A stretch of 27,750 nucleotides of DNA, taken from a virus. Below the pieces are notes generated by a model. The model searched no databases. It saw only the letters and a program-made list of their open reading frames with translations, and was not told the origin of the DNA. The stretch lies in UHGV virus genome UHGV-0085994; one strand, 5' to 3'. Position 1 is the stretch's first letter. Every line of letters starts with the position of its first letter. Positions 1 to 21,211 of the stretch are shown here, piece after piece. The position numbers were made by a program, and so were the translations under genes.

Positions 1-53
1 TCATCGGGCATTATCTGAACATAAAACACTATCAATAAGTTGGAGTCATTACC
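1..53 (+). mobile_element. IS1 right-terminal fragment (last 53 bp of IS1; body of element lies outside the window)
   Basis: Positions 1-53 read TCATCGGGCATTATCTGAACATAAAACACTATCAATAAGTTGGAGTCATTACC, which I recognise as the 3' end of IS1 including the terminal inverted repeat; exact reverse complement is present at the other end of the window. Confidence 0.8.
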
Positions 54-4548: not shown

Positions 4549-4766
4549 AGTCCCTCCTGAGCAGAAGCGTTAACAGGGAGGCACCAGTAACTGAGAGAGT
4601 TGCGCGAATCAGTGGAAAAGCGGGCAGAGAAAATGCAGGGAGCGTCAGGAAGCTGAGAACGGGCCTCATCTTCTGTCGGTGCAATAACGAAGTGATAGTG
4701 ACGTTTCTGGCAGGAATAGAAGCGCCAGATGAATTCAGGATGAGTTGGGGTAGGGACAGTAGCCAT
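4545..4766 (-). CDS. icd: Icd-like small protein (immI operon leader gene)
   Basis: 73-aa ORF overlapping ant start; Shine-Dalgarno AAGGAGG coincides with a sequence complementary to the upstream antisense element. Confidence 0.5.
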   Translation of the reverse strand: MATVPTPTHPEFIWRFYSCQKRHYHFVIAPTEDEARSQLPDAPCIFSARFSTDSRNSLSYWCLPVNASAQEGL

Positions 4767-4799
4767 AATGGCAGCCTCCTTTGACTAAGTTAAGGAGCT

Positions 4800-4890
4800 A
4801 CCGCGTGAGGTCTCAATCTCAATGGCGGTAGCACTGACTGGGTTGAGACTACCGGCGTCAAAGGGAACCGGCCTGCCTTTCGGCAGCCCA
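4800..4890 (-). ncRNA. c4: c4-type antisense RNA (candidate), with loops complementary to the icd leader
   Basis: Minus-strand elements GUCUCAA (4843-4849) and CCUUUGAC (4857-4864) lie in two predicted hairpin loops and are complementary to UUGAGA(C) repeats (4810-4823) and GUCAAAGGAGG (4776-4786, icd RBS); same-sense copies lie upstream at 5000-5006 and 4981-4988, giving the a1/b1 - a'/b' - a2/b2 layout described for P1 c4. Boundaries are approximate. Confidence 0.4.
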
Positions 4891-4950
4891 GCCAGCACTA
4901 CCATTGATTTCGGAGCTAAACGCTACGTATGGCTGTGCGATGGCATGACA

Positions 4951-4975
4951 CAAAAAAAGACGCTTTCGGCGTCTG
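4951..4975 (-). terminator. rho-independent terminator (minus strand) downstream of pacB
   Basis: AGACGC-loop-GCGTCT hairpin followed by U7 on the minus strand. Confidence 0.5.
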
Positions 4976-5105
4976 TGTCGCCTTTGACATTATCCGGGGT
5001 CTCAATCCCGGCACCCGTTTTAATGAGGTGCCTGATAAGCATAAACCGAAAATGCCTCAAGGCGCAAGAGGTCAGGTTCAATGTAACATCGGTAGTTAAA
5101 AAACA

Positions 5106-5125: not shown

Positions 5126-6610
5126 TCATTCATTAAGCCATGCCAGAGCTTCATCAACCTGCGCTTCGTCTTCGACGCTAAGCACTTCATCCTGGGGAAC
5201 ATAATCCGCCAGCATAGCGAAACAATATGTATCCCAATGGTCTGGTGAGTGCAGGTTGAGTTTTTTCTTCATATCCTCCTTACTCATCACCTTCCATTGA
5301 CCTGCGGAGTTAATCCCTACAGGGATTTTCGACGCTTCCTCAATAGTTTCATTACCCTTATCCAGTCTCATACGACCAGATTTTACGGCCTCTGCGGCTT
5401 GAACGTTGGCATAAGCACGTTTATCAAAGTACAGGCTCTTATCTTCACGGCTATGCATCTTTTTACCCCAGCGTATACGCTGTACGGTAATACCATAATA
5501 CTCGTACATCAGATCCGCCGTTGCTTTACCCAGGCCATCGCCGTCTATCGCTATGGTGATATTTGGGAATCGCTCAGGATTACATTCTGCGAAAATTTTG
5601 GCGGCAAGCTGCGTTTCTGTAACGTCTGTGTATTCCAGCATTCGATAGTTGATTACACGGCGTTTATTTCGCTGGCCGGACACCATCATGATATTGATAA
5701 CGGACTTATCCCGTCCCGTACCACCAGCAACGTCCACACATGCAAGCCAGCCCCATCCTTTGGCAATCTTGACTTTCCGCCGCGTCGCACGTTCAACCTC
5801 ATCACGTCCAAGAAGGAAGCCATCCTGTGATTTAGGGAATAGTCCGCGTACCTTAATCATGTACATAGGGTTATCACGCCCGCCGTACTCCGCCAGCTTC
5901 ATTTTGATAAATGCTGGCGTTACCAGCGGTGATTCCTCACTGTTAAGCGTGATCGCCGTATAAACGCCATCAGGGTTACCAGGACGCTTGGCCAGTTTAT
6001 GGTGAGTATCGTAGAAATAGCCGCTTGGGCGTGTAGGCTGTGACAGTAATAAGATGCGGTTATCCTGTCCGGTAAGAGCACCAGTGATGATACCGAAAGC
6101 TCTATCACTGACACCGGAGGCTTCATCGATAATATACAGAAGATGATCTGCGTGTTCACCGGCGAGAGCTTCTTCACTTCCCAGACGAAAGCCCTTCGGT
6201 ACTACAGTCCATACACCTTTACCAGTAACCTCATATAAAGCGGTTTCTGTCAGAACAAAATAATCAGCAAGCCATGGAAAACGGCTGGTGGCAGTAGCCC
6301 AGTTTATCTTGATGTACTTGAATATACCGGTCATTACCTGCTGAATTTTGTTCGCAACGATAATGGCACGGGCACCGGGATACATGATTATGAACAACAT
6401 GATCATGATAGAAGTCATGTCTGATTTCCCGGTACCGTGGCCAGACGAAACAGATGTCTTGCTACCCTGTTCCTGCACAGACTCAATAATCAGATCCTGC
6501 TGCCAGGTAGGTGTTTTGCCGAACAAAACATCAGCGGCCGCAATCCAGTCATAACGATATAGCGCCACCAGCTCGCGCCAACGTGGATCCGTTACGCAAC
6601 TTCTGGCCAT
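5126..6610 (-). CDS. pacB: terminase large subunit (PacB-like)
   Basis: 494 aa, the length of P1 PacB as I recall it; Walker A-like SGHGTGKS; directly downstream of the small-terminase-like ORF. Confidence 0.8.
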
Positions 6611-7278
6611 TAATCATCATCCCCGTATAGCTTGCGGGTAACTTCTTCGTCTTCCTCCTCGTCTTCGTCCAGGTCTTGTTCCAGCCATGGGTCGTTTGAT
6701 ACACCTTCAGTATCAACATCTCCATAACCGCCTGTATCAACGATATCGGCGATTTCTTCCCTACGCTGCTCAATCCACAATGCGGCATCGGCGCGGCGGT
6801 TGGCGGCCCGTTCTCGCGCGATTTTATCCAGATCTTCAAGTGATGGAGCGCCAGATGCTGTTTGGTTTTCCTCATCATCGGTATTGGTCTTAGGAGCACG
6901 CAGATCGGCTTTGATTTGCTCCAGCATCAGGGGCGGCACTTTCCCGCCATGCGCCTCGATGAATTCAGCTGCTTCCAGCACTGACCAGTTATTTTCACGC
7001 TTTCGTTCGTATGCCAGCTTAACAATGCCAGCTTGCCCCATAGACAAAGCGTGCTTTTCCGCCTCCCGGCTTTCTTTTCGATAGTTATTCCGGATGCTGT
7101 AAATGGTGTTGATCAGGCTGCTTATCTGCGCGGAACAGCTGTTTAGCATGCTCGCGATACGGTATTCAGGCGGAGTACCTTCATCATCGTCTTTTTGCTG
7201 ATCGCGCATTTCCTGCACCAGGCGAATACACGTAAACATCGCGCTTATCGACATCCAGATGCGGGTATTCCTTTTCAA
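6610..7278 (-). CDS. terminase small subunit-like (PacA-like), downstream frame; acidic C-terminal tail
   Basis: 222-aa ORF overlapping the upstream 73-aa ORF in a different frame; C-terminus DEDEEEDEE typical of small terminase; stop overlaps pacB start. Confidence 0.45.
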
Positions 7279-7405
7279 GGATTGCTGCGAGTTCTTTCGC
7301 TGATAGAAGAGATTTAGTGCGGATCATGTAATCCGCAATCTCGTACGATGTTATTCGTGAGTGATTTATTTCCATGAAGTGGCGTCCCTGCCAGTTAAGT
7401 AACAT
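7184..7405 (-). CDS. terminase small subunit-like, upstream frame (probable N-terminal part of a split pacA-like gene)
   Basis: 73-aa ORF with an HTH-like segment; overlaps 6610..7278 by 95 nt in another frame; C1 operator-like site just upstream. Confidence 0.35.
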
Positions 7406-7475
7406 CCTGTCACCTACTGATTAGCCCATGTCAACTAATCAACGTGGAATATAATACCCTCGATTAAAGAAATAG

Positions 7476-7492
7476 CAATACATTAGAGCAAT
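7476..7492 (-). promoter_or_regulatory. C1 operator-like site upstream of the pacA-like gene (14/17)
   Basis: Plus strand CAATACATTAGAGCAAT. Confidence 0.4.
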
Positions 7493-7493
7493 T

Positions 7494-8537
7494 TTATCTA
7501 ACACTCGACGAGTAACTTGTGATAGCGCCGACTCCAAGCGCGTAATCAAAGAACAATCGTTGATGCATCGCCAGCCTACCGTGCGTCTTCTCCCAATTAT
7601 CGCGGTCACGCTCAATATCACGCTGGCATGACTGGCACAGAGGAATTGCGTAAATGTCATGCGCGCATAATCGACTATGACGAACGATATAAGGCGTAAT
7701 GTAAGCGCCAGCTCCCGCCGCTCCACACCCACAGCATGGACGGGAAGCAACAAAGTCCATGTACTCAGGTAATTTTAGCGATTGCAGTTTTGGTATTTTG
7801 AAATGCGCCATGCCAGGGTCGGAGTCAACATCCACAGGGCATACTTTTGCACGCATCGGCGCGGCGCGTTCTTCCATCATCTGAACATATGCTGTAGCGC
7901 GATCGTCATACGGGCGAATATCCGCCTCTTTCAGAGGTCCGCTATCCTGCGTTGCGGCTTTCATCTTATTTATTGATATACGGCAAACTTCTTCCGGCAT
8001 CAGGTGCATCATGTTGCGCATGAAAGCCCACCAGCACAGTTCTTGAATACTTAAATCATGGCCATCTGAAAGCCCCATTTCCTGACGGGCGACATCCAGT
8101 ATCCAGTTAACGCGATTATTATGCAGCGTTTCTTTCAGCTCATTAAAACCACGCATCCGGTAATGGTTATCGTGATGCCAGCACAACAACACCGCGCTAT
8201 TGTCTCGTTCTGCGTGGACAATATGGTTGTCACACCAGCTACGATCTGCGGCCTGGCATTGCCCCTCTTTCCTGCGCAACCACGCCACCAGCGCGTCAAT
8301 TCCACCAATACGGCGAAACAGTTCATCGCTGTTAAAAAACGGCTGCAACGCCTCATTTGTTGCCATAGTTTGCTCGGAAACAACGAGGCCGTCGTCCATG
8401 TGCTCGATTAACTCACGCGGCACCGGCTCCATAATAAATTTACGGCCAGCCTCCACCAGCTTTCTGACTTCCTGATCCACTTTAAATGTGGCGACGCCAA
8501 GCTCTTTTTGTACAAAGGGAGTAATTACGGCTTTCAC
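7494..8537 (-). CDS. hypothetical Cys/His-rich protein (possible HNH-like or zinc-binding nuclease next to terminase)
   Basis: 347 aa; motifs CWHHDNH and CCGCG...HSRLCAHD...CQSCQ; no domain confidently recognised. Confidence 0.55.
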
Positions 8538-8564
8538 ATCACACCTTTCATCACTGATTGGGCT

Positions 8565-8765
8565 TTATCTGCTGCCCGGCATTCTCTGTTTAAGCACAAC
8601 CATTTCCTGACGGCATAACACAGCAATAGCGGTCCTGGCACCAATTTGCTTACCAACCAGGTATTGCTTTACCTCGCGGCGACTCACGCCATCAAGAAGC
8701 ATCTTTAACGCTTCACGGGACAACTTGTTGTATTTACGTGCCATTAATCTACTCCGCGGAACCAT
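8565..8765 (-). CDS. small protein with possible LuxR/GerE-like helix-turn-helix (66 aa)
   Basis: [32 protein letters not shown] pattern; overlaps doc 3' end by 17 nt. Confidence 0.35.
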
Positions 8766-9129
8766 ACAATCTACGTAACGTGTCGGCGACAGAAGATACA
8801 GATATCTCTCCGGTCGCAGCCCCTACGGTAAGGTCTGCCAGTTCTGGTGAATCAAATACCTGCACCCCGTTACGGCGTAGAAATAGCAGCGCACTGTTTA
8901 GCGCGGTACGCTTATTGGCATCATTGAATATATGCCCTCTCGCAGTAGCCACCAGGTAGGTGGCGGAGACTTCGAAAAGGTCGGTGATATCTTCGTAGGC
9001 AACTCTGGCCTGAACTCTCCCGATAATGGCCTCTGCCCTACCCGGATCTGACATTCCCGGCAGGCCGCCGTAGCGGCTTATATTCGCATCATGAAGCGCA
9101 ATAAGTTCTTCCGGTGATATATGCCTCAT
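8749..9129 (-). CDS. doc: Doc toxin (Fic-fold kinase, death on curing)
   Basis: 126 aa; near-identical to P1 Doc as recalled; Fic motif HIFNDANKR. Confidence 0.95.
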
Positions 9130-9350
9130 TATCGGTTAACCAGTTCCTTGTTGGTGGAGTCCAGAGTGTCAAACAGGGATGCAAATTCAGCATCCAGCGC
9201 CGCTTTTTTGTAGGCTTCGAAAGTAGCCTTGCTGACAATTACTGCTGGCTCACGGCCTCTGCGGGTGATTTCAACCTCTTCCCCGGCCTCAACATTGTTG
9301 AGCACTTCAGAAAGGTTGCCGCGCGCGGTACGGAAGTTAATGGATTGCAT
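9129..9350 (-). CDS. phd: Phd antitoxin (prevents host death)
   Basis: 73 aa from the internal Met ([13 protein letters not shown]...), matching P1 Phd; the ORF track starts two codons earlier. Confidence 0.95.
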
Positions 9351-9355
9351 AAACA

Positions 9356-9385
9356 CCTCGTGTACTCGTTATGTGTACACAATTA
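9356..9385 (-). promoter_or_regulatory. phd-doc promoter/operator region with GTGTAC palindromes
   Basis: GTGTAC at 9360-9365 and GTGTACAC at 9373-9380 just upstream of phd; Phd/Doc autoregulate via palindromic sites. Confidence 0.45.
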
Positions 9386-9422
9386 TAAACTTCACAGGCA
9401 TAAAGCACCAGCACTTTGCAGC

Positions 9423-9812
9423 TTAAATCACCGGACAATCATCAAATTCCCCACTTCGGGCATCATTAATGACATGAGTGATCACACCAAACACAGCATT
9501 ACTGCCCGTGCATCCATCGTCATCTACTGGTAACGCCTCTTTCTTCCCGGTGCTTAAATCCTCCAGATGCTGACGTGGATACTTCCGGTATCTTTTTACG
9601 CGATATTCCCCATCCAGAGCGCATACAAGCAGAGAACCATCAACCGGGGTAAGTGAGGAATCAACCACCAGCAATGCACCCTGTAATATTCCCTCACGAT
9701 GATGACTATCAGCTGCCCTCATGAAGTAGGTCGCTGAAGGATGTCTAATTATCTGCTGATCAAGAGAAATACGGCTCTCAGCATAATCCGCCGCAGGAGA
9801 AGGGAAGCCCAT
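9423..9812 (-). CDS. humD: HumD (UmuD'-like SOS mutagenesis protein homolog)
   Basis: 129 aa, UmuD C-terminal-domain-like; LexA box immediately upstream. Confidence 0.8.
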   Translation of the reverse strand: MGFPSPAADYAESRISLDQQIIRHPSATYFMRAADSHHREGILQGALLVVDSSLTPVDGSLLVCALDGEYRVKRYRKYPRQHLEDLSTGKKEALPVDDDGCTGSNAVFGVITHVINDARSGEFDDCPVI

Positions 9813-9830
9813 AGCGTTTTCACCTCAGAG

Positions 9831-9850
9831 TACTGTTTATCCATACAGTA
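9831..9850. promoter_or_regulatory. LexA box (SOS box) upstream of humD
   Basis: TACTGTTTATCCATACAGTA = CTGT-N8-ACAG, 19 bp upstream of the humD start codon. Confidence 0.65.
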
Positions 9851-9910
9851 TACATTAAAGATGCTTGAAGTGTGCAATAGCGCGATGCTTTGCGCTCGCC
9901 TGGTGGCGCG

Positions 9911-10162
9911 TTATTTTTTGGCTATATCTTCTTTCTGATATACCGGATCGTTTCCTTTTGGCAGCAGGAGGCTTAACTGCCGGTAGTGCCGTAGCCGTTC
10001 CATGAAATAGGTGCGCAGGTTCTCAGGTTGCTCACGGGCTACCTGTTCCGCTATGACGGGTATGTTCAATCGCTCTTTGTAGGCAACCCCCCTGGCAGCC
10101 AGGTCAACGTTAACTTTATTCCTTTCTTCCTGGCTTTTAGCTGCTATGTTCCAGTTGCTCAT
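9911..10162 (-). CDS. hot: Hot, homolog of DNA polymerase III theta subunit (HolE)
   Basis: 83 aa; [35 protein letters not shown] aligns with E. coli theta. Confidence 0.8.
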
Positions 10163-10164
10163 GT

Positions 10165-10380
10165 TTAAGGCTCACATTTCCAGATGGTATTCTGAACACC
10201 CGAACCGGGCGTAAGATGAGGGTTAGCGTTCGCACTATGCTGATATACAGCTTTGGACTTTCCATATTGCTGACAGGCTTTGTCTGCGGTTTTTTGCAGG
10301 CTGTCCAGCCCATACCAGCCATCTGACTGGATGCTAACATTTTCGCCGTCATTGTATTGCACCATCGCACACCCAGACAT
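10165..10380 (-). CDS. small hypothetical protein, possibly a lipoprotein with an unannotated start
   Basis: 71-aa ORF; in-frame upstream codons encode a hydrophobic signal-like stretch ending ILAMSGC but no ATG/GTG/TTG start before the stop. Confidence 0.3.
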
Positions 10381-10513
10381 AGCTAAAATCGCACCGACAA
10401 TACCGCTTTTCCAAAAAGCTCTAATTAGGTCATTCGTTGCCTAATGTCCGAACTGCTAAAGCATCCAAGTTGCTGTAGAATCACCGCCAATTACATAAGC
10501 CTGAAATAAGTGG

Positions 10514-12076
10514 ATGAAAATGACAAGTATTCAACAACGTGCAGAGCTTCATCGTCAAATCTGGCAAATTGCTAACGATGTCAGGGGTTCGGTCGATGGA
10601 TGGGATTTTAAGCAATACGTTCTGGGCGCACTTTTCTACCGTTTTATCAGCGAAAATTTTTCCAGCTATATTGAAGCCGGTGATGACAGTATCTGTTATG
10701 CGAAACTGGATGACAGCGTAATTACTGATGACATTAAAGACGATGCCATCAAAACCAAAGGTTACTTCATCTACCCAAGTCAGCTTTTCTGCAACGTAGC
10801 TGCGAAAGCAAATACCAATGACAGACTGAATGCAGATTTAAACAGTATCTTCGTTGCTATCGAAAGTTCTGCTTACGGTTATCCTTCAGAAGCTGACATC
10901 AAAGGTTTGTTTGCTGATTTCGATACCACCAGTAACCGCCTGGGTAACACCGTTAAAGATAAAAATGCCCGCCTGGCTGCGGTTCTGAAAGGGGTTGAAG
11001 GGTTAAAACTTGGTGACTTCAACGAACATCAGATTGACCTGTTCGGTGATGCCTATGAGTTCCTGATTTCTAACTATGCGGCAAATGCCGGTAAGTCAGG
11101 CGGTGAGTTCTTTACACCGCAGCACGTCTCCAAGCTGATTGCACAACTGGCTATGCACGGGCAGACCAGCGTTAACAAAATCTACGACCCGGCAGCGGGT
11201 TCCGGCTCACTGTTGTTGCAGGCGAAAAAACAGTTTGATAACCACATCATCGAAGAAGGCTTTTTCGGTCAGGAAATCAACCATACGACCTATAACCTGG
11301 CGCGTATGAACATGTTTTTGCACAACATCAACTACGACAAGTTTGATATCAAGCTGGGCAATACGCTGACTGAACCGCACTTCAGAGATGAAAAACCGTT
11401 TGATGCCATCGTTTCTAACCCGCCGTATTCGGTGAAATGGATTGGCAGCGATGACCCGACGCTGATTAACGATGAGCGTTTTGCCCCGGCTGGCGTTCTG
11501 GCCCCCAAATCCAAAGCTGACTTTGCGTTTGTATTACATGCGCTGAACTATCTTTCGGCCAAAGGTCGTGCTGCGATTGTCTGCTTCCCGGGTATTTTTT
11601 ACCGTGGCGGCGCAGAGCAGAAAATCCGTCAGTATCTGGTCGATAATAACTATGTCGAAACCGTAATTTCACTGGCTCCGAACCTGTTCTTTGGCACCAC
11701 CATTGCCGTAAACATTCTGGTTCTGTCCAAACATAAAACGGATACCAACGTTCAGTTTATTGATGCCAGCGAACTGTTCAAAAAAGAGACCAACAACAAT
11801 ATCCTGACCGATGCCCATATCGAACAAATTATGCAGGTATTCACCAGCAAGGAAGATGTTGCTCATCTGGCAAAATCTGTCGCGTTTGAAGCCGTTGTAG
11901 CGAATGACTATAACCTGTCGGTGAGCAGCTATGTAGAATCGAAAGATAACCGCGAAATTATCGATATTGCTGAGCTGAATGCGGAACTGAAAACCACGGT
12001 CAGCAAAATCGACCAGTTGCGCAAAGATATTGATGCGATTGTGGCTGAAATTGAAGGCTGCGAGGTACAGAAATGA
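10514..12076 (+). CDS. hsdM: type I restriction-modification system, DNA methyltransferase subunit HsdM (type IC, EcoR124-like)
   Basis: 520 aa; N6-adenine methyltransferase motif NPPY(SVKW); followed by hsdS with 4-bp overlap. Confidence 0.95.
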
Positions 12077-13221
12077 GCGAGTTGAGTTATCTGGAAAAAT
12101 TGCTGGATGGAGTTAAGGTTGAGTGGAAAACACTAGAGAAAGTGCTTAAACGAACTAAAGGCACAAAAATAACCGCTGGGCAGATGAAAGCTCTTCACAA
12201 AGATAATGCGCCGCTTAAAATTTTTGCAGGGGGAAAAACAGTAGCCTTTGTTGACTTTAAAGATATTCCAGAGAAAGATATTAATAGAGAGCCATCGATC
12301 ATTGTTAAATCCAGAGGTATTATCGAATTCGAGTATTACGATAAACCATTCTCTCACAAAAATGAGATGTGGTCATATCACTCAAATAATGATGCGATAA
12401 GCATAAAGTATATTTATTACTTCCTAAAAATAAATGAAGGATATTTCCAGAAAATTGGGGGTAAAATGCAAATGCCACAAATTGCAACTCCTGATACAGA
12501 TAAGTTTGAAGTTCCAATCCCTTGCCCGGATAATCCGGAAAAATCCCTTGCCATCCAGTCTGAAATCGTTCGGATTCTGGATAAATTTACTGCAGTTACC
12601 GCTGAGCTTACCGCTGAGCTTAACATGCGTAAAAAACAGTACAACTACTATCGCGACCAGTTACTGAATCTTGAGGGCAGGGAAAATACTCGAGAAATGA
12701 GGATAGGTGATATTTATGATTTTCAGTATGGAACAGGCAATACAATTCCTAAATCTGGAGGGCAATATCCTGTTTATGGTAGCAACGGGATTGTAGGCTC
12801 CCATGACAAATATAACAGCGAAGACTCGCCTGTTATTGGTCATATAGGTGCTTACGCAGGAATCGTTAACTGGGGCCAAGGTAAGCATTTTGTTACATAC
12901 AACGGAGTTATTTGTAGGCACAAATCGAAGGAAGTTCTTCAAAAATACGCCTACTATTTATTACTTTTACAAGATTTCGGTTCAAAATCTAATAGTGCAT
13001 CACAGCCTTTTGTTTCATATAACATATTAAATGCTCCTATTGTTTTGGTTCCCCCTTTACAAGAGCAAGCTCGTATCGTCGCAATACTCGATAAATTCGA
13101 CACACTGACCAACTCCATCACCGAAGGTCTCCCGCGTGAAATCGAGTTGCGCCAGAAACAATACGAGTACTATCGTGATTTACTGTTCAGTTTCCCAAAA
13201 CCTGAAACAGCCAGTAATTAA
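12073..13221 (+). CDS. hsdS: type I R-M specificity subunit HsdS (two target-recognition domains; central TAELTAEL repeat)
   Basis: 382 aa; conserved repeats LDKF..(Q/K)QYxYYRD after each TRD; central TAEL x2 as in EcoR124I-type subunits. Confidence 0.95.
12598..12621 (+). repeat. 12-bp tandem direct repeat ACCGCTGAGCTT x2 encoding TAEL-TAEL in hsdS
   Basis: Directly visible; in the EcoR124 family the copy number of this repeat sets the spacer length of the recognition sequence. Confidence 0.75.
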
Positions 13222-13342
13222 TTGAGCATTTTTACAGACCGGACCACCTTAACATCCGGTCAGTATATAGACTATTTTCTACACGACGGAAGTCGCCCTT
13301 AACTCCCTTCCGGCCCTTGCCAGACGGCACAAAGGATGCGCT

Positions 13343-16300
13343 ATGACTCATCAAACACACACCATTGCTGAATCCAATAACTTTATCGTCCTTGATAAGT
13401 ACATCAAAGCTGAGCAAACAAGCGACAGCTACCAGAGCGAATCGGACCTGGAACGTGAACTGATTCAGGACCTGCGGAATCAGGGCTATGAATTTATATC
13501 CGTAAAATCACAGTCGGCGATGCTAGCCAATGTTCGGGAACAGCTTCAGAACCTCAATGGTGTGGTGTTTAATGACAGCGAGTGGCGGCGTTTCACGGAG
13601 CAGTATCTGGATAACCCGAGCGATGGCATTCTGGATAAGACCCGTAAAATCCATATCGACTATATTTGCGACTTTATTTTTGATGACGAGCGTCTTGAGA
13701 ACATCTATTTGATAGATAAAAAGAATCTCATGCGCAATAAGGTGCAGATTATCCAGCAGTTTGAACAGACGGGTTCTCATGCTAACCGTTATGACGTCAC
13801 GATCCTGGTTAATGGTTTACCGCTGGTGCAAATCGAACTAAAAAAACGCGGGGTGGCGATTCGTGAGGCTTTCAACCAGATACATCGTTACAGTAAAGAG
13901 AGTTTTAACAGCGAAAATTCCCTGTTTAAGTATCTGCAGCTGTTCGTCATTTCCAACGGCACTGATACCCGTTATTTTGCCAACACCACAAAGCGCGATA
14001 AAAACAGTTTTGACTTCACCATGAACTGGGCTAAATCAGACAATACACTGATTAAAGACCTCAAAGACTTTACCGCTACCTTTTTCCAGAAACATACTCT
14101 GCTTAATGTTCTGGTGAACTACAGCGTTTTTGACAGCAGTCAGACACTACTGGTAATGCGACCGTACCAGATTGCCGCCACCGAGCGCATTCTGTGGAAA
14201 ATTAAGAGTTCCTTTACAGCGAAGAACTGGTCAAAACCGGAAAGCGGTGGGTATATCTGGCACACTACCGGTTCTGGTAAAACCCTCACCAGCTTTAAAG
14301 CCGCGCGTCTGGCAACAGAGCTGGACTTTATTGATAAAGTCTTCTTTGTGGTCGACAGGAAAGACCTCGATTACCAGACCATGAAGGAATATCAGCGTTT
14401 TTCGCCAGACAGCGTCAACGGCTCGGAAAATACCGCAGGTCTTAAACGAAATCTGGATAAGGACGATAACAAAATTATCGTCACTACTATTCAGAAACTC
14501 AATAACCTGATGAAAGCAGAAAGCGATCTGCCTGTATATAATCAGCAAGTGGTGTTTATATTTGATGAATGCCACCGCAGCCAGTTTGGAGAAGCGCAGA
14601 AAAACCTGAAGAAGAAATTCAAACGCTATTATCAGTTTGGTTTTACCGGCACCCCTATTTTCCCGGAAAACGCCTTAGGCTCAGAAACAACCGCCAGCGT
14701 ATTTGGTCGTGAATTGCATTCGTATGTAATTACCGATGCGATTCGTGACGAAAAAGTGCTCAAATTCAAGGTGGACTACAACGATGTGCGGCCACAGTTT
14801 AAGTCTTTAGAGACAGAAACTGACGAGAAAAAACTGAGTGCGGCTGAAAATCAGCAGGCGTTTCTTCATCCCATGCGTATTCAGGAAATCACGCAATATA
14901 TTCTGAATAATTTCCGCCAGAAAACCCACCGTACCTTCCCTGGCTCAAAAGGTTTTAATGCTATGTTGGCAGTGAGCAGCGTGGATGCCGCGAAAGCCTA
15001 TTATGCGACGTTTAAACGGTTACAAGAAGAAGCCGCTAATAAATCGGCTACCTATAAACCGCTGCGTATTGCGACAATCTTCTCCTTTGCCGCCAATGAA
15101 GAACAAAATGCCATTGGTGAAATTTCCGATGAAACTTTTGATACCAGCGCAATGGACAGCAGTGCTAAAGAGTTTCTGGACGCTGCAATTCGTGAATATA
15201 ACAGCCATTTTAAAACTAACTTTAGCACCGACAGTAACGGTTTTCAGAACTACTATCGTGATTTAGCCCAGCGGGTTAAAAATCAGGATATCGATCTGCT
15301 AATTGTCGTGGGGATGTTTTTAACCGGCTTCGATGCTCCAACATTAAACACGCTATTCGTCGATAAAAACTTGCGTTTTCACGGCCTGATGCAGGCATTC
15401 TCCCGCACCAACCGCATTTATGACGCGACTAAAACCTTCGGTAATATTGTCACGTTCCGGGATCTGGAACGCTCAACCATTGATGCCATAACGCTGTTTG
15501 GTGACAAAAATACCAAAAATGTGGTTTTAGAAAAGAGTTATGCAGAGTATATGGAAGGCTTTACTGATGCTGCCACTGGTGAAGCTAAACGCGGCTTCAT
15601 GACAGTAGTTTCAGAACTGGAACAACGGTTCCCTGACCCTACCAGTATTGAAAGTGAAAAAGAGAAGAAAGACTTCGTTAAACTGTTTGGCGAATACCTG
15701 CGTGCCGAGAACATCCTGCAAAACTATGATGAATTTGCCACGCTAAAAGCCCTGCAACAAATCGATCTTAGCGATCCTGTTGCGGTAGAAAAATTCAAAG
15801 CAGAACATTATGTGGATAATGAAAAGTTCGCTGAATTGCAAACAATTCGTCTCCCTGCTGATCGCAAGATTCAGGATTATCGTTCTGCCTATAACGATAT
15901 TCGCGACTGGCAGCGCCGTGAGAAAGAAGCTGAGAAAAAAGAGAAATCAACCACTGACTGGGATGACGTAGTTTTTGAGGTCGATTTGCTGAAGTCTCAG
16001 GAAATAAACCTGGATTATATCCTTGGACTGATTTTCGAACACAATAGACAAAATAAAGGCAAGGGCGAAATGATCGAAGAGGTCAAACGCTTAATTCGTT
16101 CAAGCCTGGGGAACCGGGCGAAAGAGGGCCTGGTGGTCGATTTTATTCAGCAAACGAACCTGGATGATTTACCAGACAAAGCCAGTATCATTGAGGCATT
16201 CTTTACGTTTGCTCAACGCGAACAGCAACGTGAAGCAGAAGCATTGATAAAAGAAGAAAATCTCAATGAAGATGCAGCAAAACGCTATATTCGCACGTCT

Positions 16301-16459
16301 TTAAAACGCGAATACGCCACCGAAAATGGCACAGAATTAAACGAAACATTACCAAAACTTAGTCCGTTGAATCCGCAATATAAAACGAAAAAACAGGCAG
16401 TTTTCCAGAAAATCGTCTCGTTTATTGAGAAGTTTAAAGGCGTAGGCGGAAAAATATAG
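13343..16459 (+). CDS. hsdR: type I R-M restriction endonuclease/translocase subunit HsdR
   Basis: 1038 aa; helicase motif I TGSGKT and DECH box; gene order M-S-R typical of type IC. Confidence 0.95.
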
Positions 16460-16538
16460 CCCAATTCGTATTTTTCTTGCGGGTTCTTAATTAAACCCGC
16501 AAGAGACCGTGGGGTTCCAAATGGCTAATATACTCCCC

Positions 16539-16625
16539 TTACCCATGCGCGACAATGCTGCCAAAAGTGATAGAGAACAGCCAGAAATAGATCGCGGCCA
16601 TAATGATTTTGAATGCCGTGTTCAT
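16539..16625 (-). CDS. 28-aa hydrophobic peptide (MNTAFKIIMAAIYFWLFSITFGSIVAHG), candidate small membrane protein or type I toxin-like peptide
   Basis: ATG with AGGAG Shine-Dalgarno at 7-nt spacing; single predicted transmembrane helix; C1 operator about 85 bp upstream; below the ORF-track length cutoff. Confidence 0.4.
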   Translation of the reverse strand: MNTAFKIIMAAIYFWLFSITFGSIVAHG

Positions 16626-16653
16626 ATTTTCAGCTCCTGTGATTGATTGGATA

Positions 16654-16684
16654 CATGCCGCGCCTTGCGGCATGTTTTTATTTT
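16654..16684 (+). terminator. rho-independent terminator (plus strand), likely end of the hsdR transcript
   Basis: CATGCCGC-loop-GCGGCATG hairpin followed by TTTTTATTTT. Confidence 0.5.
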
Positions 16685-16707
16685 CACTTTCTCTGTTTTA
16701 AAAATCA

Positions 16708-16724
16708 AGATTTATTAGAGCAAT
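16708..16724 (-). promoter_or_regulatory. C1 operator, 16/17 match
   Basis: Plus strand AGATTTATTAGAGCAAT; lies between the HAD-like gene stop and the small peptide gene. Confidence 0.65.
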
Positions 16725-17230
16725 TATTGTTGATGGAGAAGCGCGTTTTCATACTCCCTGACCATTAACGTAAGTACGCCGTGACTCCTGAAAACACGCG
16801 CCACTTCAATCTTATCTTCCAGCGCGAACGCAATTTTACTTAGACCAATTTTCTTCAGGAGATCAATCTTTGCTGGACCGTCATTTCTGTCATCGGTGGC
16901 AGGACGCATAGATAGCAAAGGCTCAGCCCCATTTGTTACGTGCTTACGCAACCAGGCTCGTGTTTTATCCCTGGCTATCTCACAGCGCCCGGTTACAAAC
17001 CAGAGGGTGTAAATGCCGGACAACTGGCGCACCATATCAATAACTGGAGTGATGGGAGCATCAGTGTCACAGGCAAGGTTAAACTCGTTCCAGTGCTCTG
17101 TTAATGCACCTTTGCCAGGTGGTGGAAGTAAATGCAGCCTGTCTTCCGTTGCCTCTGATATCGTCCCATCAATATCTACTATGACGATGTACGGACGTTC
17201 CTGGTGTGCGTGTTTATTGAAAATACTCAA
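16724..17230 (-). CDS. HAD-superfamily phosphatase-like protein (DxDGT motif; 5'(3')-deoxyribonucleotidase or polynucleotide 3'-phosphatase-like)
   Basis: 168 aa; N-terminal VIVDIDGTIS matches HAD motif I; TTG start with GAGGAGG Shine-Dalgarno. Confidence 0.6.
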   Translation of the reverse strand: MSIFNKHAHQERPYIVIVDIDGTISEATEDRLHLLPPPGKGALTEHWNEFNLACDTDAPITPVIDMVRQLSGIYTLWFVTGRCEIARDKTRAWLRKHVTNGAEPLLSMRPATDDRNDGPAKIDLLKKIGLSKIAFALEDKIEVARVFRSHGVLTLMVREYENALLHQQ

Positions 17231-17302
17231 ATGCCCTCCTCATTGGACGAAAAAAATGCTGGTGGGAGCACTCCACCAGCATTAAAAGTGACACTGTAAC
17301 TA

Positions 17303-18565
17303 TCAGCGAACGTAAATAGTGCCGCCGTTCTCTTTTTCCCATGCATCGCTACGTGCATAGCAAACATCGAGAAGTCTTCTTGCCGCAGTTTCCTCTAAAC
17401 CCAATTCGACAACCAACTGCTCATGACGGCGGGTAACCACATCAAACAGGGTATGCAGCCCTTTAGTTGCCAGATCATCAATGAATTCCGGTTCGAACGG
17501 CAGCTCTGCATCTGCCAACATAACCTCTTGCGCCCACTCAACTCGACGGACCAGTTCCGGGCGGCGGCTTTCCATCTCTTTACAGATCAATTCATGGAAG
17601 AACTCTACCCAACCTTCCGGCTGAAACTCGCGGAAAATTGCCAACGGCTGGAAGTTTGGCATCAACCATTCGTTGATTCGGATATCAATGGCATAGCCCA
17701 TGTCGCAGCAGAACTGATAAGCAAAGTCCAGCTTAGAAACGATATAAGGACGCTCGTTATTGAACTCTTTAGGCGATGAGATCCCATAAGCCAGGAGGCG
17801 CGGGAAGAAGGAGATTTGCCCTAACGTCGGATGAAGTTTGCTTGCAGGGAAACGGCGCTCAGTAATGCCATACATTTCCTTCTTGAGCGTCGCAAATTTG
17901 GCATTCTCATTAACCAGCGCGGTAACCTCTGCTTTTTTATTAGCAAATGCCACGCGCGCTTCGCTTGCATCTTTAATAGTTTTTTTGAGCTGTTGGTTAA
18001 GGTCGGCGACCTGCTTACGCAGTTCCTGTCGCTCGCTTTTAGCTTTGTTATAGCGTTTCTCAAGGTTAAAAGGATCAAGTTTCATGATCTCTTTATATTG
18101 AGATTTTAGCGTTGAAATCTGTGAGTTCCGCAGTTCAACCATCGCGGTCATTTCATTGAGTTTTGTTTCCAGCTCAATGCTTATACGTTCGGCATTATCA
18201 GCACGCTGGTTGGCGTCATGCGTCGCATCGTCGATCGCGTCCTGTTGCTGGCGTTTCAAATGTTCAATTTGCAGCTGAAGCTCTTCAATTTCTTTACCCT
18301 TCAGACCGAGATCCAACTGCATATTTTCAGCTGCATCTACCAGGGAGTTATGGCTATCAGCTTCTGCGTTATAAACATCAATAAGCTGTGCGTGAAGCAT
18401 CTCCGCTGACTGAACCGCATTATCAAAAAAACGTGCTGTGAGGTCATCACAACTAACGCGGCGTTGCGCAGCCCGGATGTTCTGGATAATGGCCGGGATA
18501 CCGGCATTCAGGACATCAGGGATAGATACATTTTCGATTGATTGGTTTTGTGCTGAAGTGCTCAT
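17303..18565 (-). CDS. hypothetical protein: N-terminal coiled coil (about 230 aa) plus uncharacterised C-terminal globular domain
   Basis: 420 aa; heptad-like Q/E/K/L-rich N-terminal half; no recognisable catalytic motif in the C-terminal half. Confidence 0.65.
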   Translation of the reverse strand: MSTSAQNQSIENVSIPDVLNAGIPAIIQNIRAAQRRVSCDDLTARFFDNAVQSAEMLHAQLIDVYNAEADSHNSLVDAAENMQLDLGLKGKEIEELQLQIEHLKRQQQDAIDDATHDANQRADNAERISIELETKLNEMTAMVELRNSQISTLKSQYKEIMKLDPFNLEKRYNKAKSERQELRKQVADLNQQLKKTIKDASEARVAFANKKAEVTALVNENAKFATLKKEMYGITERRFPASKLHPTLGQISFFPRLLAYGISSPKEFNNERPYIVSKLDFAYQFCCDMGYAIDIRINEWLMPNFQPLAIFREFQPEGWVEFFHELICKEMESRRPELVRRVEWAQEVMLADAELPFEPEFIDDLATKGLHTLFDVVTRRHEQLVVELGLEETAARRLLDVCYARSDAWEKENGGTIYVR

Positions 18566-18566
18566 T

Positions 18567-18785
18567 TCAAAGTTCCGTATTAGCTTGTGCTTCGGTCATT
18601 TTTCCTAAGTATGAAGGTGGAAGGACTACGCAATTTGTATCCAGTCCCTCACCTATGGCAGCCTGTAAAATTCTGGCTAAGGTGAGTCTCTTGTTGCGAT
18701 ACCTGGTGATGACATGCCTGATACCGCCGGTCGGCGTAACAAAGGCGATCAGCCAGTAGTGATATTTCCGTCGGAATGGCCACAT
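18567..18785 (-). CDS. small hypothetical protein (72 aa) translationally coupled to the 420-aa ORF
   Basis: ORF ends at the 420-aa start; begins 15 bp from a C1 operator. Confidence 0.3.
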   Translation of the reverse strand: MWPFRRKYHYWLIAFVTPTGGIRHVITRYRNKRLTLARILQAAIGEGLDTNCVVLPPSYLGKMTEAQANTEL

Positions 18786-18799
18786 AGTGCACCTTATAG

Positions 18800-18816
18800 A
18801 TTGCTCTAATAAAAAA
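18800..18816 (+). promoter_or_regulatory. C1 operator-like site (14/17)
   Basis: ATTGCTCTAATAAAAAA. Confidence 0.5.
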
Positions 18817-18836
18817 CGTGATGAGTGTACATCACG
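18817..18836. terminator. bidirectional hairpin terminator between two minus-strand operons
   Basis: CGTGATG-AGTGTA-CATCACG flanked by an A-run upstream and a T-run downstream. Confidence 0.45.
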
Positions 18837-18848
18837 TTTTAAAAATAT

Positions 18849-18865
18849 GGAACTATTAGAGCAAT
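18849..18865 (-). promoter_or_regulatory. C1 operator-like site (13/17), inverted relative to 18800-18816
   Basis: Plus strand GGAACTATTAGAGCAAT. Confidence 0.4.
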
Positions 18866-18866
18866 A

Positions 18867-19568
18867 TTATTCTGATTCTCGCTCAAAAAATGAGCTGATA
18901 AGGGGAAGCCAATCCTCTGACACTTCGCGAGGTCGCGGTTTGCCGTGGAAAAAGATTATTCGGCAGTCTTTTGGTAATGCCCCATTCCCCCTGGAGTAAC
19001 GCGCGCTCGCATATTTCGAACCAGGTTCCACAACATCGGCCTTGTAACTTACAAACCATCCCGGATACAGATCCTGAAATGCTGGTGTATCATCACCCAT
19101 AACCTTCCGCAAAAACCCCTGCTCACCCCAGCATTCAGTAGTAACACAACGAGCAATCCAACCTTCCGGATCTTGCCAGAATGCACTCCAGATATGCGCT
19201 TTTACACTATTTGGTATCCACAGGGCACCGCTGCCACGATATTGTGGATGGTAAAAATCCCTAAGCATGGTGAAGCTGGTTGGTGGATTCTCTAGGATTG
19301 GGCGTATATCACCGGCAATAACCGTGTCCAAATCCAGATAGAACAGATCATCGGTTATATCCGGTCGGAACAACTCGATTTTCGCCCACCAGCCACGGCA
19401 CTTTTGCCACTGGTTGATCAATGGGACAACTTTGACGCCAGGTACATGTAAACGCTTCAGGTCTGTCAGGCAAATAATTTCATAGCCTTTTGGCAGTTGA
19501 TTAACCAGCCACTGCACATCGGAAGCGTTATAGTCACCACCAGAGCGAAGAACTAAAGCAATCTTCAT
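18867..19568 (-). CDS. hypothetical protein with DxD-like motif (possible nucleotide-sugar transferase fold), coupled to the phosphatase gene
   Basis: 233 aa; YLDLDTV motif; start overlaps the ppp stop. Confidence 0.6.
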
Positions 19569-20257
19569 GCTGCACCATCACCTTTCACTTTCATCAATGT
19601 CAGGTTTCCGCAAAATACGGCACCTGTGTCGATATAATGCTGATTCCAGAATGTCTTCGGGCTTTTCACCGGAGTGTGACCAAAGATAAAACGATCTGCG
19701 CCCGAAATTTCGCCACCAATATCATCCATCGAATCACTGATACGCTCGCGCGCCCAGACAACGTTGAAAAGCGGCACCTCCTTACCGAATTGGTATTCAT
19801 TATCCGGATAGTCGGCATGGGCTATAACGATAGTTTCTTGCCCGGTGTTCAACTCAATGATATAGGGCAGACGCTTTACCAGCTCCACCAGCGCCCAGGC
19901 TAATATTTCCTGATCAGTGTCCAGCATGAAGAACCATTGTCCGCCATTCATTAGCCAGTTATTCACGTTGCCATCTGGACTTAACGCATCAATCATCAGC
20001 CGCTCATGGTTCCCCATCACTGCCCTGAACCAGGGCATCTGCAATAGTTCCAGACATTCGACATTTTCAGTACCGCGATCGATAAGGTCTCCGAACGATA
20101 TCAGTAAATCCTGCGCCGGGTCAAAATCCACACGATGGAGTTCGGACATCAGTCTGGTGTAGCAACCATGCAGATCACCAACAACCCAGACATTCCTGTA
20201 TTTGGTACCGTCGATACGGTGATAAATTGTGGGTGCCATCATGTATTCTTCAGCCAT
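19565..20257 (-). CDS. ppp: serine/threonine protein phosphatase, lambda-PP/PrpA family metallophosphatase
   Basis: 230 aa; motifs GDLHGC, GDLIDRG, GNHE; symbol by analogy with what I recall as P1 ppp. Confidence 0.85.
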
Positions 20258-20391
20258 TCTTTAAGAGTCATCTGCGGAATACCTCCCATTTTCCCGCATG
20301 AAACAACGTCAATCTGTTCACGCGCAGACTGGAATAACAAAGGCAGGTGACTTAGATTTTTTGGCGTGCCGCCGGAGTGAACGCGTGGTTC

Positions 20392-21211
20392 GGCACTGTT
20401 GCAAAGTTAGCGATGAGGCAGCCTTTTGTCTTATTCAAAGGCCTTACATTTCAAAAACTCTGCTTACCAGGCGCATTTCGCCCAGGGGATCACCATAATA
20501 AAATGCTGAGGCCTGGCCTTTGCGTAGTGCTCGCATCACCTCAATACCTTTGATGGTGGCGTAAGCCGTCTTCATGGATTTAAATCCCAGCGTGGCGCCG
20601 ATTATCCGTTTCAGTTTGCCATGATCGCATTCAATCACGTTGTTCCGGTACTTAATCTGTCGGTGTTCAACGTCAGACGGGCACCGGCCTTCGCGTTTGA
20701 GCAGAGCAAGCGCGCGACCATAGGCGGGCGCTTTATCCGTGTTGATGAATCGCGGGATCTGCCACTTCTTCACGTTGTTGAGGATTTTACCCAGAAACCG
20801 GTATGCAGCTTTGCTGTTACGACGGGAGGAGAGATAAAAATCGACAGTGCGGCCCCGGCTGTCGACGGCCCGGTACAGATACGCCCAGCGGCCATTGACC
20901 TTCACGTAGGTTTCATCCATGTGCCACGGGCAAAGATCGGAAGGGTTACGCCAGTACCAGCGCAGCCGTTTTTCCATTTCAGGCGCATAACGCTGAACCC
21001 AGCGGTAAATCGTGGAGTGATCGACATTCACTCCGCGTTCAGCCAGCATCTCCTGCAGCTCACGGTAACTGATGCCGTATTTGCAGTACCAGCGTACGGC
21101 CCACAGAATGATGTCACGCTGAAAATGCCGGCCTTTGAATGGGTTCATGTGCAGCTCCATCAGCAAAAGGGGATGATAAGTTTATCACCACCGACTATTT
21201 GCAACAGTGCC
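20392..21211 (-). mobile_element. IS26 (IS6 family), complete 820-bp element
   Basis: 14-bp terminal inverted repeats GGCACTGTTGCAAA at 20392-20405 and 21198-21211; encodes Tnp26; no 8-bp target-site duplication in the flanks. Confidence 0.95.
20444..21148 (-). CDS. tnpA: IS26 transposase Tnp26
   Basis: 234 aa from MNPFKGRHFQRDIILWAVRWY...; matches IS26 transposase as recalled. Confidence 0.95.
   Translation of the reverse strand: MNPFKGRHFQRDIILWAVRWYCKYGISYRELQEMLAERGVNVDHSTIYRWVQRYAPEMEKRLRWYWRNPSDLCPWHMDETYVKVNGRWAYLYRAVDSRGRTVDFYLSSRRNSKAAYRFLGKILNNVKKWQIPRFINTDKAPAYGRALALLKREGRCPSDVEHRQIKYRNNVIECDHGKLKRIIGATLGFKSMKTAYATIKGIEVMRALRKGQASAFYYGDPLGEMRLVSRVFEM

Follow-up and report, generated by a model that had tools for sequence, protein, structure and literature searches.

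Positions 10514–16459 of the window (the whole 27,750-nucleotide stretch analysed here) hold an intact type IC restriction–modification gene set of the EcoR124 family, ordinary for that family. We judge it highly probable (roughly 85%) that this is a functional-looking EcoR124-family system with two TAEL units, carried as cargo by a P1-like plasmid prophage. The arrangement is already known, both the P1-flanked type IC hsd loci and the TAEL spacer switch being textbook, and the locus is of little importance beyond annotation.

Integrity and family assignment of the hsd genes

The three genes lie on the plus strand in the order hsdM–hsdS–hsdR. The ORF call, Pfam (N6_Mtase, HsdM_N) and NCBIfam (TIGR00497) agree on hsdM (10514–12076, 520 aa), whose product aligns over its full length with EcoR124 HsdM (7bst_D) with four substitutions; RefSeq relatives begin at the second ATG (10520), giving 518 aa. 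Following with a 4-bp overlap, hsdS (12073–13221, 382 aa) matches Pfam Methylase_S and none of the NCBIfam models, and a 121-bp spacer (13222–13342, plus strand), presumed from the EcoR124 literature to contain a separate hsdR promoter, divides it from hsdR (13343–16459, 1038 aa). HsdR matches 2w00_A ungapped from residue 1 to 1038. Type I families are defined via complementation and cross-hybridisation; the sequence proxy used here is the full-length, ungapped alignment of HsdM and HsdR, at ~99% identity, to 7bst_D and 2w00_A. The initial annotation had claimed a complete type IC system with the gene order and 520/1038-aa subunits of the EcoR124 family, and the three intact ORFs, the Pfam/NCBIfam matches and the ~99% identity to EcoR124 subunits bear this out at the coordinates given.

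Inactivating mutations in hsdR or hsdM had been named as grounds for abandoning that assignment; we find both ORFs whole and every catalytic motif present. HsdM retains DPAAGSG (at 225) and NPPY (at 302), and HsdR retains Asp151, Glu165, Lys167, QxxxY (179–183), Lys220, GSGKT (310) and DECH (408). The domain make-up of HsdR (HSDR_N, SWI2_SNF2, T1R_D3-like and EcoR124_C in Pfam, TIGR00348 in NCBIfam) is that of a type IC subunit, with a PD-(D/E)xK nuclease and its QxxxY motif, an SF2 motor and the EcoR124_C helical/C-terminal domains. By analogy with the family, an M2S1 assembly would methylate N6-adenine on both strands of a bipartite target, and R2M2S1 would translocate and cut unmodified DNA at a distance in an ATP-dependent manner.

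HsdS, identical protein copies of which occur on 34 public contigs, alternates variable and conserved regions. The first variable target-recognition domain (TRD1, 12135–12513, plus strand; residues 21–147) is delimited by the loss of homology to phage vB_EcoM-673R5 between 12134 and 12514; it matches EcoR124 TRD1 weakly and is common to two survey loci (L010 and L028), each of which pairs it with another second TRD. The homology map and comparison with 7bst_A place the central conserved region (helix D1, which holds the repeat) at 12514–12662 and TRD2 at 12663–13062 (residues 197–330), and the C-terminal conserved region (13063–13221) is near-identical to the EcoR124 HsdS C-terminus (all on the plus strand). 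Relative to 7bst_A, the conserved regions match and both TRDs are divergent, such that HsdS has the composition of a type IC specificity subunit: two variable TRDs, conserved central and C-terminal helices, and TAEL in the central one. A recognition sequence is not assignable from these comparisons; the PDB offers EcoR124 HsdS only, with different TRDs, and the 120 best database relatives all carry generic names.

The TAEL repeat and its copy number

The central helix contains two tandem ACCGCTGAGCTT units (12598–12621, plus strand), encoding TAEL-TAEL within a periodic tract at 12596–12622. The unit occurs exactly twice and in the hsdS frame (12598 − 12073 = 525, or 175 codons), and Tandem Repeats Finder reports the tract (period 12, 2.2 copies, 100% match, score 54), in agreement with the initial count of exactly two TAEL-coding repeats. 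For a gene of 1.15 kb, the chance expectation of a perfect 12-bp tandem duplication is about 1149/4^12 (~7e-5). Directly 5′ of the repeat the window allele has GTT (Val) for CTT (Leu), and the periodic tract is thereby 26 bp long in place of 27. Perfect, in-frame 12-bp units within the HsdS central conserved region are the form that the spacer switch takes in this family, for which the TAEL rule and methylated positions 7 or 8 bp apart have been described (Loenen et al, 2014; PMC3874165); the 1-bp effect of unit number on the spacer has been demonstrated in EcoR124I/II and in EcoR124/EcoDXXI hybrids (PMC3874165). Under the TAEL rule, an allele with two units would have its methylated adenines 7 bp apart, and we infer that the spacer of the window allele is one base shorter than that of three-unit alleles. 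Slippage or unequal crossing-over that adds or removes one unit would change the spacer by 1 bp, and hence create a new specificity.

Natural alleles that share a TRD pair and differ in unit number are observed directly. The hsdS gene of pHYEC7-mcr1 (two units) differs from that of p2017.15.03CC and pPE15-92K (three units) solely by one 12-bp unit, and the 11 kb around hsdS in a pair of this type differ by three SNPs and the 12-bp gap; judged from these sequences, recent gain or loss of a unit has happened in sister plasmids of the window element. Among 54 loci surveyed in IMG/VR, 36 have two copies and 18 have three. Twelve allele groups share their TRDs; three of these mix two and three copies (L003 against L004/L005, which differ by 12 bp, and two further groups), and the remaining nine are uniform. 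A scan of species-representative genomes returned more distant loci only (HsdM identity ≤93%) and was used for repeat counts alone. One-unit alleles occur only in a locus with hsdM deleted, and because of that deletion we rejected a single unit as a third functional state.

How readily the window locus would switch is a separate matter. It is conceivable, if rather doubtful, that the two-unit allele is fixed in an intact locus, with copy change a rare evolutionary event and the phrase “poised for specificity switching” an overstatement. The repeat tract is just 24–26 bp long, two copies are the commonest state, most same-TRD groups are uniform, and a single assembly cannot reveal heterogeneity within the sample; the polymorphism is seen between isolates as opposed to within one culture. 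Fixation is harder to reconcile with near-isogenic plasmids that differ by one unit across 11 kb with three SNPs, with mixed groups that arose three times independently, and with the documented interconversion of EcoR124I and EcoR124II (PMC3874165). We retain a system capable of switching as the preferred reading, and the initial description of the locus as poised finds support in the natural two- and three-unit alleles of the same TRD pair.

Insertion site, carrier and expression

The hsd module stands in place of P1 pmgT–upfO, between hot/humD/phd-doc and pap. The left flank (9423–10162, minus strand) comprises humD (9423–9812, Peptidase_S24) and hot (9911–10162, DNA_pol3_theta), both with P1 homology, and lxr is absent from it. 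Between hot and the module the homology map places a non-P1 remnant (10165–10414, minus strand), a lipoprotein-like ORF without a start, which is common to survey locus L051 and four others; the homology boundary at 10415 recurs in 29 loci and in pHYEC7-mcr1. On the right, the ORF list and P1 homology identify pap (16724–17230, minus strand). Tyndall et al are said to have connected hsd loci of type IC with precisely these flanking P1 sequences in 1997, and P1's own annotation already records such loci with these flanks. In the deposited phage records phi456 and vB_EcoM-673R5, hsd occupies the equivalent position. At a coverage of 80% or more, the hsd locus is matched by 579 plasmid records; the module is found in more than a thousand plasmid records and in about one in four complete E. 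coli genomes.

The backbone was correctly described as P1-like (94.6–98% identity to P1, P7, RCS47 and SJ46), with c1, coi, C1 operators, C4/icd/ant, cre, phd-doc, pac and morphogenetic genes syntenic as in a Punavirus plasmid prophage. The carrier is not an intact phage: lpa, pacA, sit and pmgP are truncated and the pac site is missing. Its damage comprises an IS26-associated inversion (with IS26 truncating pmgP and sit), a 934-bp lpa–pacA deletion and an IS1 insertion adjoining cre. Carriage on so degraded a P1-like element makes the hsd genes plasmid cargo and not part of a viable phage. The initial annotation also reported that EcoP1I res/mod is not visible and that an IS1 junction occupies its position. 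The IS1 end is real (window 1–53, 100% identity to annotated IS1 copies); absence of res/mod does not follow, because the window stops inside IS1 at position 1, 321 bp beyond cre, and res/mod is expected downstream of cre–ref–mat. In three P1-like variants res-mod is reported to be absent (Venturini et al, 2019; PMC6906374). A 91-aa, InsA-sized ORF at 49–324 was rejected as IS1 InsA, having no Pfam match; it is the IS1-shortened homologue of a 103-aa hypothetical gene beside cre in pHYEC7.

Two further explanations concern the history and the state of the module. It may be ancestral at the P1-lineage site and lost from P1 itself, as opposed to recently acquired here: P1 retains ~220 bp (84263–84482) homologous to sequence 3′ of EcoDXXI and R124/3 hsdR, a terminator-like hairpin within that remnant is oriented for hsdR and not for pmgT, and P1 phd-doc is homologous to sequence upstream of EcoDXXI hsd. 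We regard this as unlikely, given several left junctions (10415, 10165, 9424 and about 10517), a right junction that coincides exactly with the hsdR stop codon outside P1 contexts, and the occurrence of the module in chromosomes and conjugative plasmids; the varied junctions and these other locations are consistent with recombinational exchange of a mobile cassette. That the system is silent or non-restricting, and at most a methyltransferase or plasmid-addiction module in a decaying prophage, strikes us as improbable. The damaged backbone, with its deletion and IS insertions, would suit such decay, as would relatives with degraded hsd genes (a frameshifted hsdS in pNCYU-26-73-2, and the hsdM-deleted locus with the one-unit allele). 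In the window, however, none of the three ORFs is disrupted, the catalytic motifs are all present, 10415–16534 contains no insertion or deletion, and conservation of hsdR argues for selection, such that a functional-looking system remains the reading we favour, its activity being a prediction from gene content.

Expression was considered from promoter, operator and terminator candidates. The region upstream of hsdM (10415–10513, plus strand), presumed to contain the hsdM–hsdS promoter, is common to most P1-like hsd carriers, and a candidate hsdR promoter (TTAACA-18-TATTTT) lies at 13249–13278. A scan for the sigma-70 consensus gave 14 matches against 13 expected from shuffled sequence, with nothing convincing upstream of hsdM, and for this reason no promoter was called. 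A scan for C1 operators, validated by its recovery of positions corresponding to annotated P1 operators, found none in the hsd promoter regions (10163–10513 and 13222–13342), as first proposed. Lacking a C1 operator in its promoter regions, hsd would most likely be constitutive in the lysogen or plasmid state, serving as defence and plasmid-stabilising cargo.

One C1 operator does lie 3′ of hsdR (16708–16724, minus strand; one mismatch to consensus), the homologue of P1 OpmgT (Op88; P1 84293–84309). Situated ~250 bp downstream of hsdR, it overlaps pmgT promoters that point into the hsdR 3′ end; downstream of these promoters is a small hydrophobic ORF of 28 aa (16538–16624, minus strand), whose counterpart in SJ46 and pHYEC7 is annotated “membrane protein” or “hypothetical”. 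A terminator-like hairpin with a T-run (16653–16685, on the hsdR strand) sits inside P1-shared sequence and is the better terminator candidate; the hairpin just 3′ of hsdR (16477–16503) lacks a following T-run and was for that reason rejected as a canonical terminator in both orientations. It is a long shot that the C1-controlled pmgT promoters, 220–250 bp 3′ of hsdR, serve as an antisense brake on hsdR in the lytic phase, in which case inactivation of C1 would bring convergent transcription and less restriction while genome replication outpaces methylation; the antisense transcripts would start near 16675–16690. Less exotic than this brake is the reading that slippage between two and three TAEL units may genuinely switch specificity at the population level in P1-like phage-plasmids.

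Comparison with known systems

P1 (NC_005856) shares cre, c1, coi, pacB, pdcB, doc, phd, humD and hot with the window, as well as pap, pmgS, pmgQ, ppp, sit and tub, all at 85–98% identity, with C1 operators at homologous positions. Where the window has hsdMSR, P1 carries pmgT-pmgU-pmgV-upfMNO (and lxr); the window element additionally has the immI module (C4 RNA, icd and ant), located between c1 and pacB, as well as IS1, IS26 and the lpa–pacA deletion. The type IC systems EcoDXXI and EcoprrI belong to the same family and have three TAEL units (PMC3874165). According to the P1 annotation, the EcoDXXI locus has phd-doc on one side and pap–pmgT intergenic sequence on the other; prrC of the prr locus is absent from the window.

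The type IC prototype EcoR124I/EcoR124II (plasmids R124 and R124/3) has the same gene order, 520/1038-aa subunits with ~99% identical HsdM and HsdR, and near-identical HsdS N-terminal, central and C-terminal conserved regions, and EcoR124I likewise has two copies of the same 12-bp TAEL unit. Both TRDs differ, however, and EcoR124 HsdS has 404 aa against 382 in the window, which predicts recognition half-sites other than GAA/RTCG. Immediately before the repeat EcoR124 has Leu and the window Val, and the carrier of EcoR124 is plasmid R124 whereas that of the window system is a P1-like plasmid prophage. Also among the closest systems are the hsd modules of the P1-like IncY plasmids pHYEC7-mcr1 (NZ_KX518745), p2017.15.03CC (NZ_LC511659) and pPE15-92K (NZ_CP041630), which have the window's TRD pair (99.4% DNA identity), the same HsdM and HsdR and the same right flank (pap, pmgS and beyond). 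In these plasmids the module borders directly on phd at 10415, whereas in the window humD, hot and the lipoprotein-gene remnant intervene; p2017.15.03CC and pPE15-92K also have three TAEL units against the window's two. Near-isogenic P1-like mcr-1 plasmids thus form a natural EcoR124I/II-like pair, pHYEC7-mcr1 with two units and p2017.15.03CC with three, which could gauge the effect of one TAEL unit on new specificity and on plasmid and phage spread.

Type IC genes and their target-recognition domains

The initial annotation had placed a type IC restriction–modification system of the EcoR124 family in this region, and ORF calling bore out its three reading frames exactly in coordinates and size: on the plus strand, hsdM (10514-12076, 520 aa) overlaps hsdS (12073-13221, 382 aa) by 4 bp, and a 121-bp spacer separates hsdS from hsdR (13343-16459, 1038 aa). 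The family assignment agrees both with the domains recovered from Pfam and NCBIfam (HsdM_N, N6_Mtase and TIGR00497 in HsdM; Methylase_S in HsdS; HSDR_N, SWI2_SNF2, T1R_D3-like, EcoR124_C and TIGR00348 in HsdR) and with the near-identity of HsdM and HsdR to the solved EcoR124 subunits. HsdM aligns ungapped to the M subunit (7bst_D) over residues 1-520 with four substitutions, and HsdR to 2w00_A over residues 1-1038 with ~8 substitutions in the portion of the alignment displayed. None of the changes in HsdM or HsdR relative to these subunits falls at a catalytic residue; HsdM keeps DPAAGSG(225) and NPPY(302), and HsdR keeps D151, E165, K167, Q179-Y183, K220, GSGKT(310) and DECH(408).

HsdS matches its EcoR124 equivalent (7bst_A) near-perfectly over its first 20 residues, its central helix and its last 50 residues, whereas both target-recognition domains (TRDs) match weakly or not at all. 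The enzyme thus belongs to the EcoR124 family but differs in specificity, which is uncharacterised. On 34 public contigs an identical HsdS occurs, under a generic name only. A further natural HsdS (P0020, 415 aa), found on 40 contigs, E. coli chromosomes included, has the first TRD of the window at each of its two TRD positions (TRD1-TRD1). In this it corresponds, as a natural protein, to the engineered symmetric EcoR124I-NT, and its target is presumably a palindromic site.

TAEL unit number and possible specificity switching

The two 12-bp TAEL copies noted earlier are present: two tandem copies of ACCGCTGAGCTT lie at 12598-12621, in frame with hsdS, and encode TAEL-TAEL (Tandem Repeats Finder: 12596-12622, period 12, 2.2 copies, 100% match). 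The codon preceding the first TAEL (12595-12597) is GTT (Val) in the window and in the related locus L051; EcoR124 and every other relative examined have CTT (Leu) there. The exchange leaves the perfectly periodic tract one base shorter.

In EcoR124I, two TAEL units go with the target GAA N6 RTCG and an interval of 7 bp between the methylated adenines; in EcoR124II, three units go with an N7 spacer, and in EcoDXXI and EcoprrI three units go with an 8-bp interval. Changes in unit number originate from unequal crossing-over at the 12-bp repeat (Loenen et al., PMC3874165). The TRD pair of the window likewise occurs naturally in both states, with two units in the hsdS of pHYEC7-mcr1, NZ_CP059290 and an E. 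coli J2 chromosomal locus, and with three in that of p2017.15.03CC, pPE15-92K and pNCYU-26-73-2 (frameshifted in the last). The 12-bp unit is the sole difference between the hsdS genes of pHYEC7-mcr1 and p2017.15.03CC, and 11 kb around hsdS differ by three SNPs and the 12-bp gap.

A wider survey covered 160 loci fetched with an HsdM query. Of the IMG/VR loci, 36 carried two units and 18 carried three; the species-representative genomes gave counts of 14 with two, 7 with three, 2 with one and 1 with none. Both two- and three-unit alleles occurred in 3 of 12 same-TRD groups. A one-unit allele of the window's TRD pair (P0032, 378 aa) lies at 5849-7137 of locus L174 (GCA_012683645.1), flanked by CbtA/CbeA and IS elements, with hsdR intact; we discount it as a working state because hsdM is deleted there apart from its last 51 codons. 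The initial description of the hsdS locus as poised for specificity switching is reasonable, its support being drawn from comparisons between isolates.

Position in the P1 backbone and state of the carrier

Mapping onto P1 places the equivalent of P1 90163-87534 (part of lpa, pdcB, pdcA, doc, phd, humD) at 7233-9861, hot (90% identity) at 9926-10153, the hsd module at 10415-16534 and the equivalent of P1 84482-80626 (pmgT promoter region, pap, pmgS, pmgR, pmgQ, ppp, part of pmgP) at 16535-20391. On this map, hsd takes the place of pmgT-pmgU-pmgV-upfM-upfN-upfO. The gene lxr, which in P1 lies between hot and humD, is absent at 9862-9925, and humD and its upstream region are kept. Between hot and the module lies a non-P1 lipoprotein-like gene remnant (10165-10414, minus strand), with an ILAMSGC lipobox and no usable start codon, which is common to L051 and four other loci and is found in neither P1 nor pHYEC7; L051 has ~800 bp extra at this position.

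In the P1 annotation, 84263-84482 matches DNA downstream of the EcoDXXI and R124/3 hsdR genes, and phd-doc matches DNA upstream of the EcoDXXI hsd locus. The link of type IC hsd to P1 flanks is credited to Tyndall et al. 1997, as cited in PMC12707154 (ref 364) and PMC2853133 (ref 24), and the P1-like plasmid pSvP1 has a type I system in place of pmg genes (Venturini et al. 2019, PMC6906374). A 6.4-kb hsd query matched 1503 plasmid records, 579 of them over at least 80% of its length, and hsdS matched 1309 of 5426 complete E. coli genomes. Most of the fetched loci have their left junction at 10415 or directly at the start of hsdM; on the right, either the junction coincides exactly with the hsdR stop or P1 sequence runs on.

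The carrier is not an intact phage. Its truncated pmgP is joined by a complete IS26 (20392-21211, 820 bp, perfect GGCACTGTTGCAAA terminal repeats; transposase 20444-21166, minus strand) to P1 41240-47759 (sit', pmgB, tub, pmgC, simC), which stands in inverted relative orientation; this implies an IS26-associated inversion truncating pmgP and sit. At 7233/7234 the element lacks 934 bp of P1 (P1 90164-91097), a deletion that cuts lpa after ~57 codons, with its 3' two-thirds gone, and removes the pac cleavage site and the first ~190 codons of pacA; lpa and pacA are intact in the close relatives L051 and L170-L173. With these losses, neither late-gene activation nor DNA packaging should be possible for the element. 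An immI-type module (3433-5031) comprising Ant (3433-4548), the C4 antisense RNA (4821-4908, 75 bits) and isrK (4953-5031), all on the minus strand, sits between c1 and pacB, whereas pHYEC7-mcr1 has icd-ant on the other side of cre.

At the left end, positions 1-53 are a 100% match to an IS1 end that several records annotate, RCS47 and P1 among them, with the junction at 53/54, 321 bp past the cre stop. The IS1 junction reported near cre stands; because the window ends at IS1, it gives no basis for concluding that type III res/mod is absent. A 91-aa ORF (49-324) was rejected as InsA.

C1 operators and relation to known systems

We scanned for the C1 operator consensus (ATTGCTCTAATAAATTT), allowing up to three mismatches. 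Seven matches were returned against 0.24 expected, and the scan is validated by three of them, whose positions map to Olpa, OpmgT and OpmgRb in the P1 annotation. It found no operator in 10163-10513 or 13222-13342, in keeping with the earlier statement that the hsd promoter regions lack them, and from this absence we infer that hsd would be expressed constitutively in the lysogen; a promoter scan was uninformative (14 matches, 13 expected). The OpmgT homologue (16708-16724, minus strand, one mismatch) and two predicted pmgT promoters are kept though pmgT is gone, and aim, through a hydrophobic 28-aa ORF (16538-16624, minus strand, MNTAFKIIMAAIYFWLFSITFGSIVAHG), at the 3' end of hsdR. That derepressed pmgT promoters might give convergent transcription or RNA antisense to hsdR after induction is speculation. 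A hairpin with a T-run (16653-16685, plus strand) is a plausible hsdR terminator.

The observation behind the initial annotation, and most of its interpretation, are correct. Only two items are modestly new. One is the natural plasmid pair that carries this uncharacterised specificity with two and with three units; the other is the C1 operator that lies downstream of hsdR and faces it. The locus is otherwise of little interest, since the hsd system, where it sits in P1-like elements and how its repeat works are all established knowledge.
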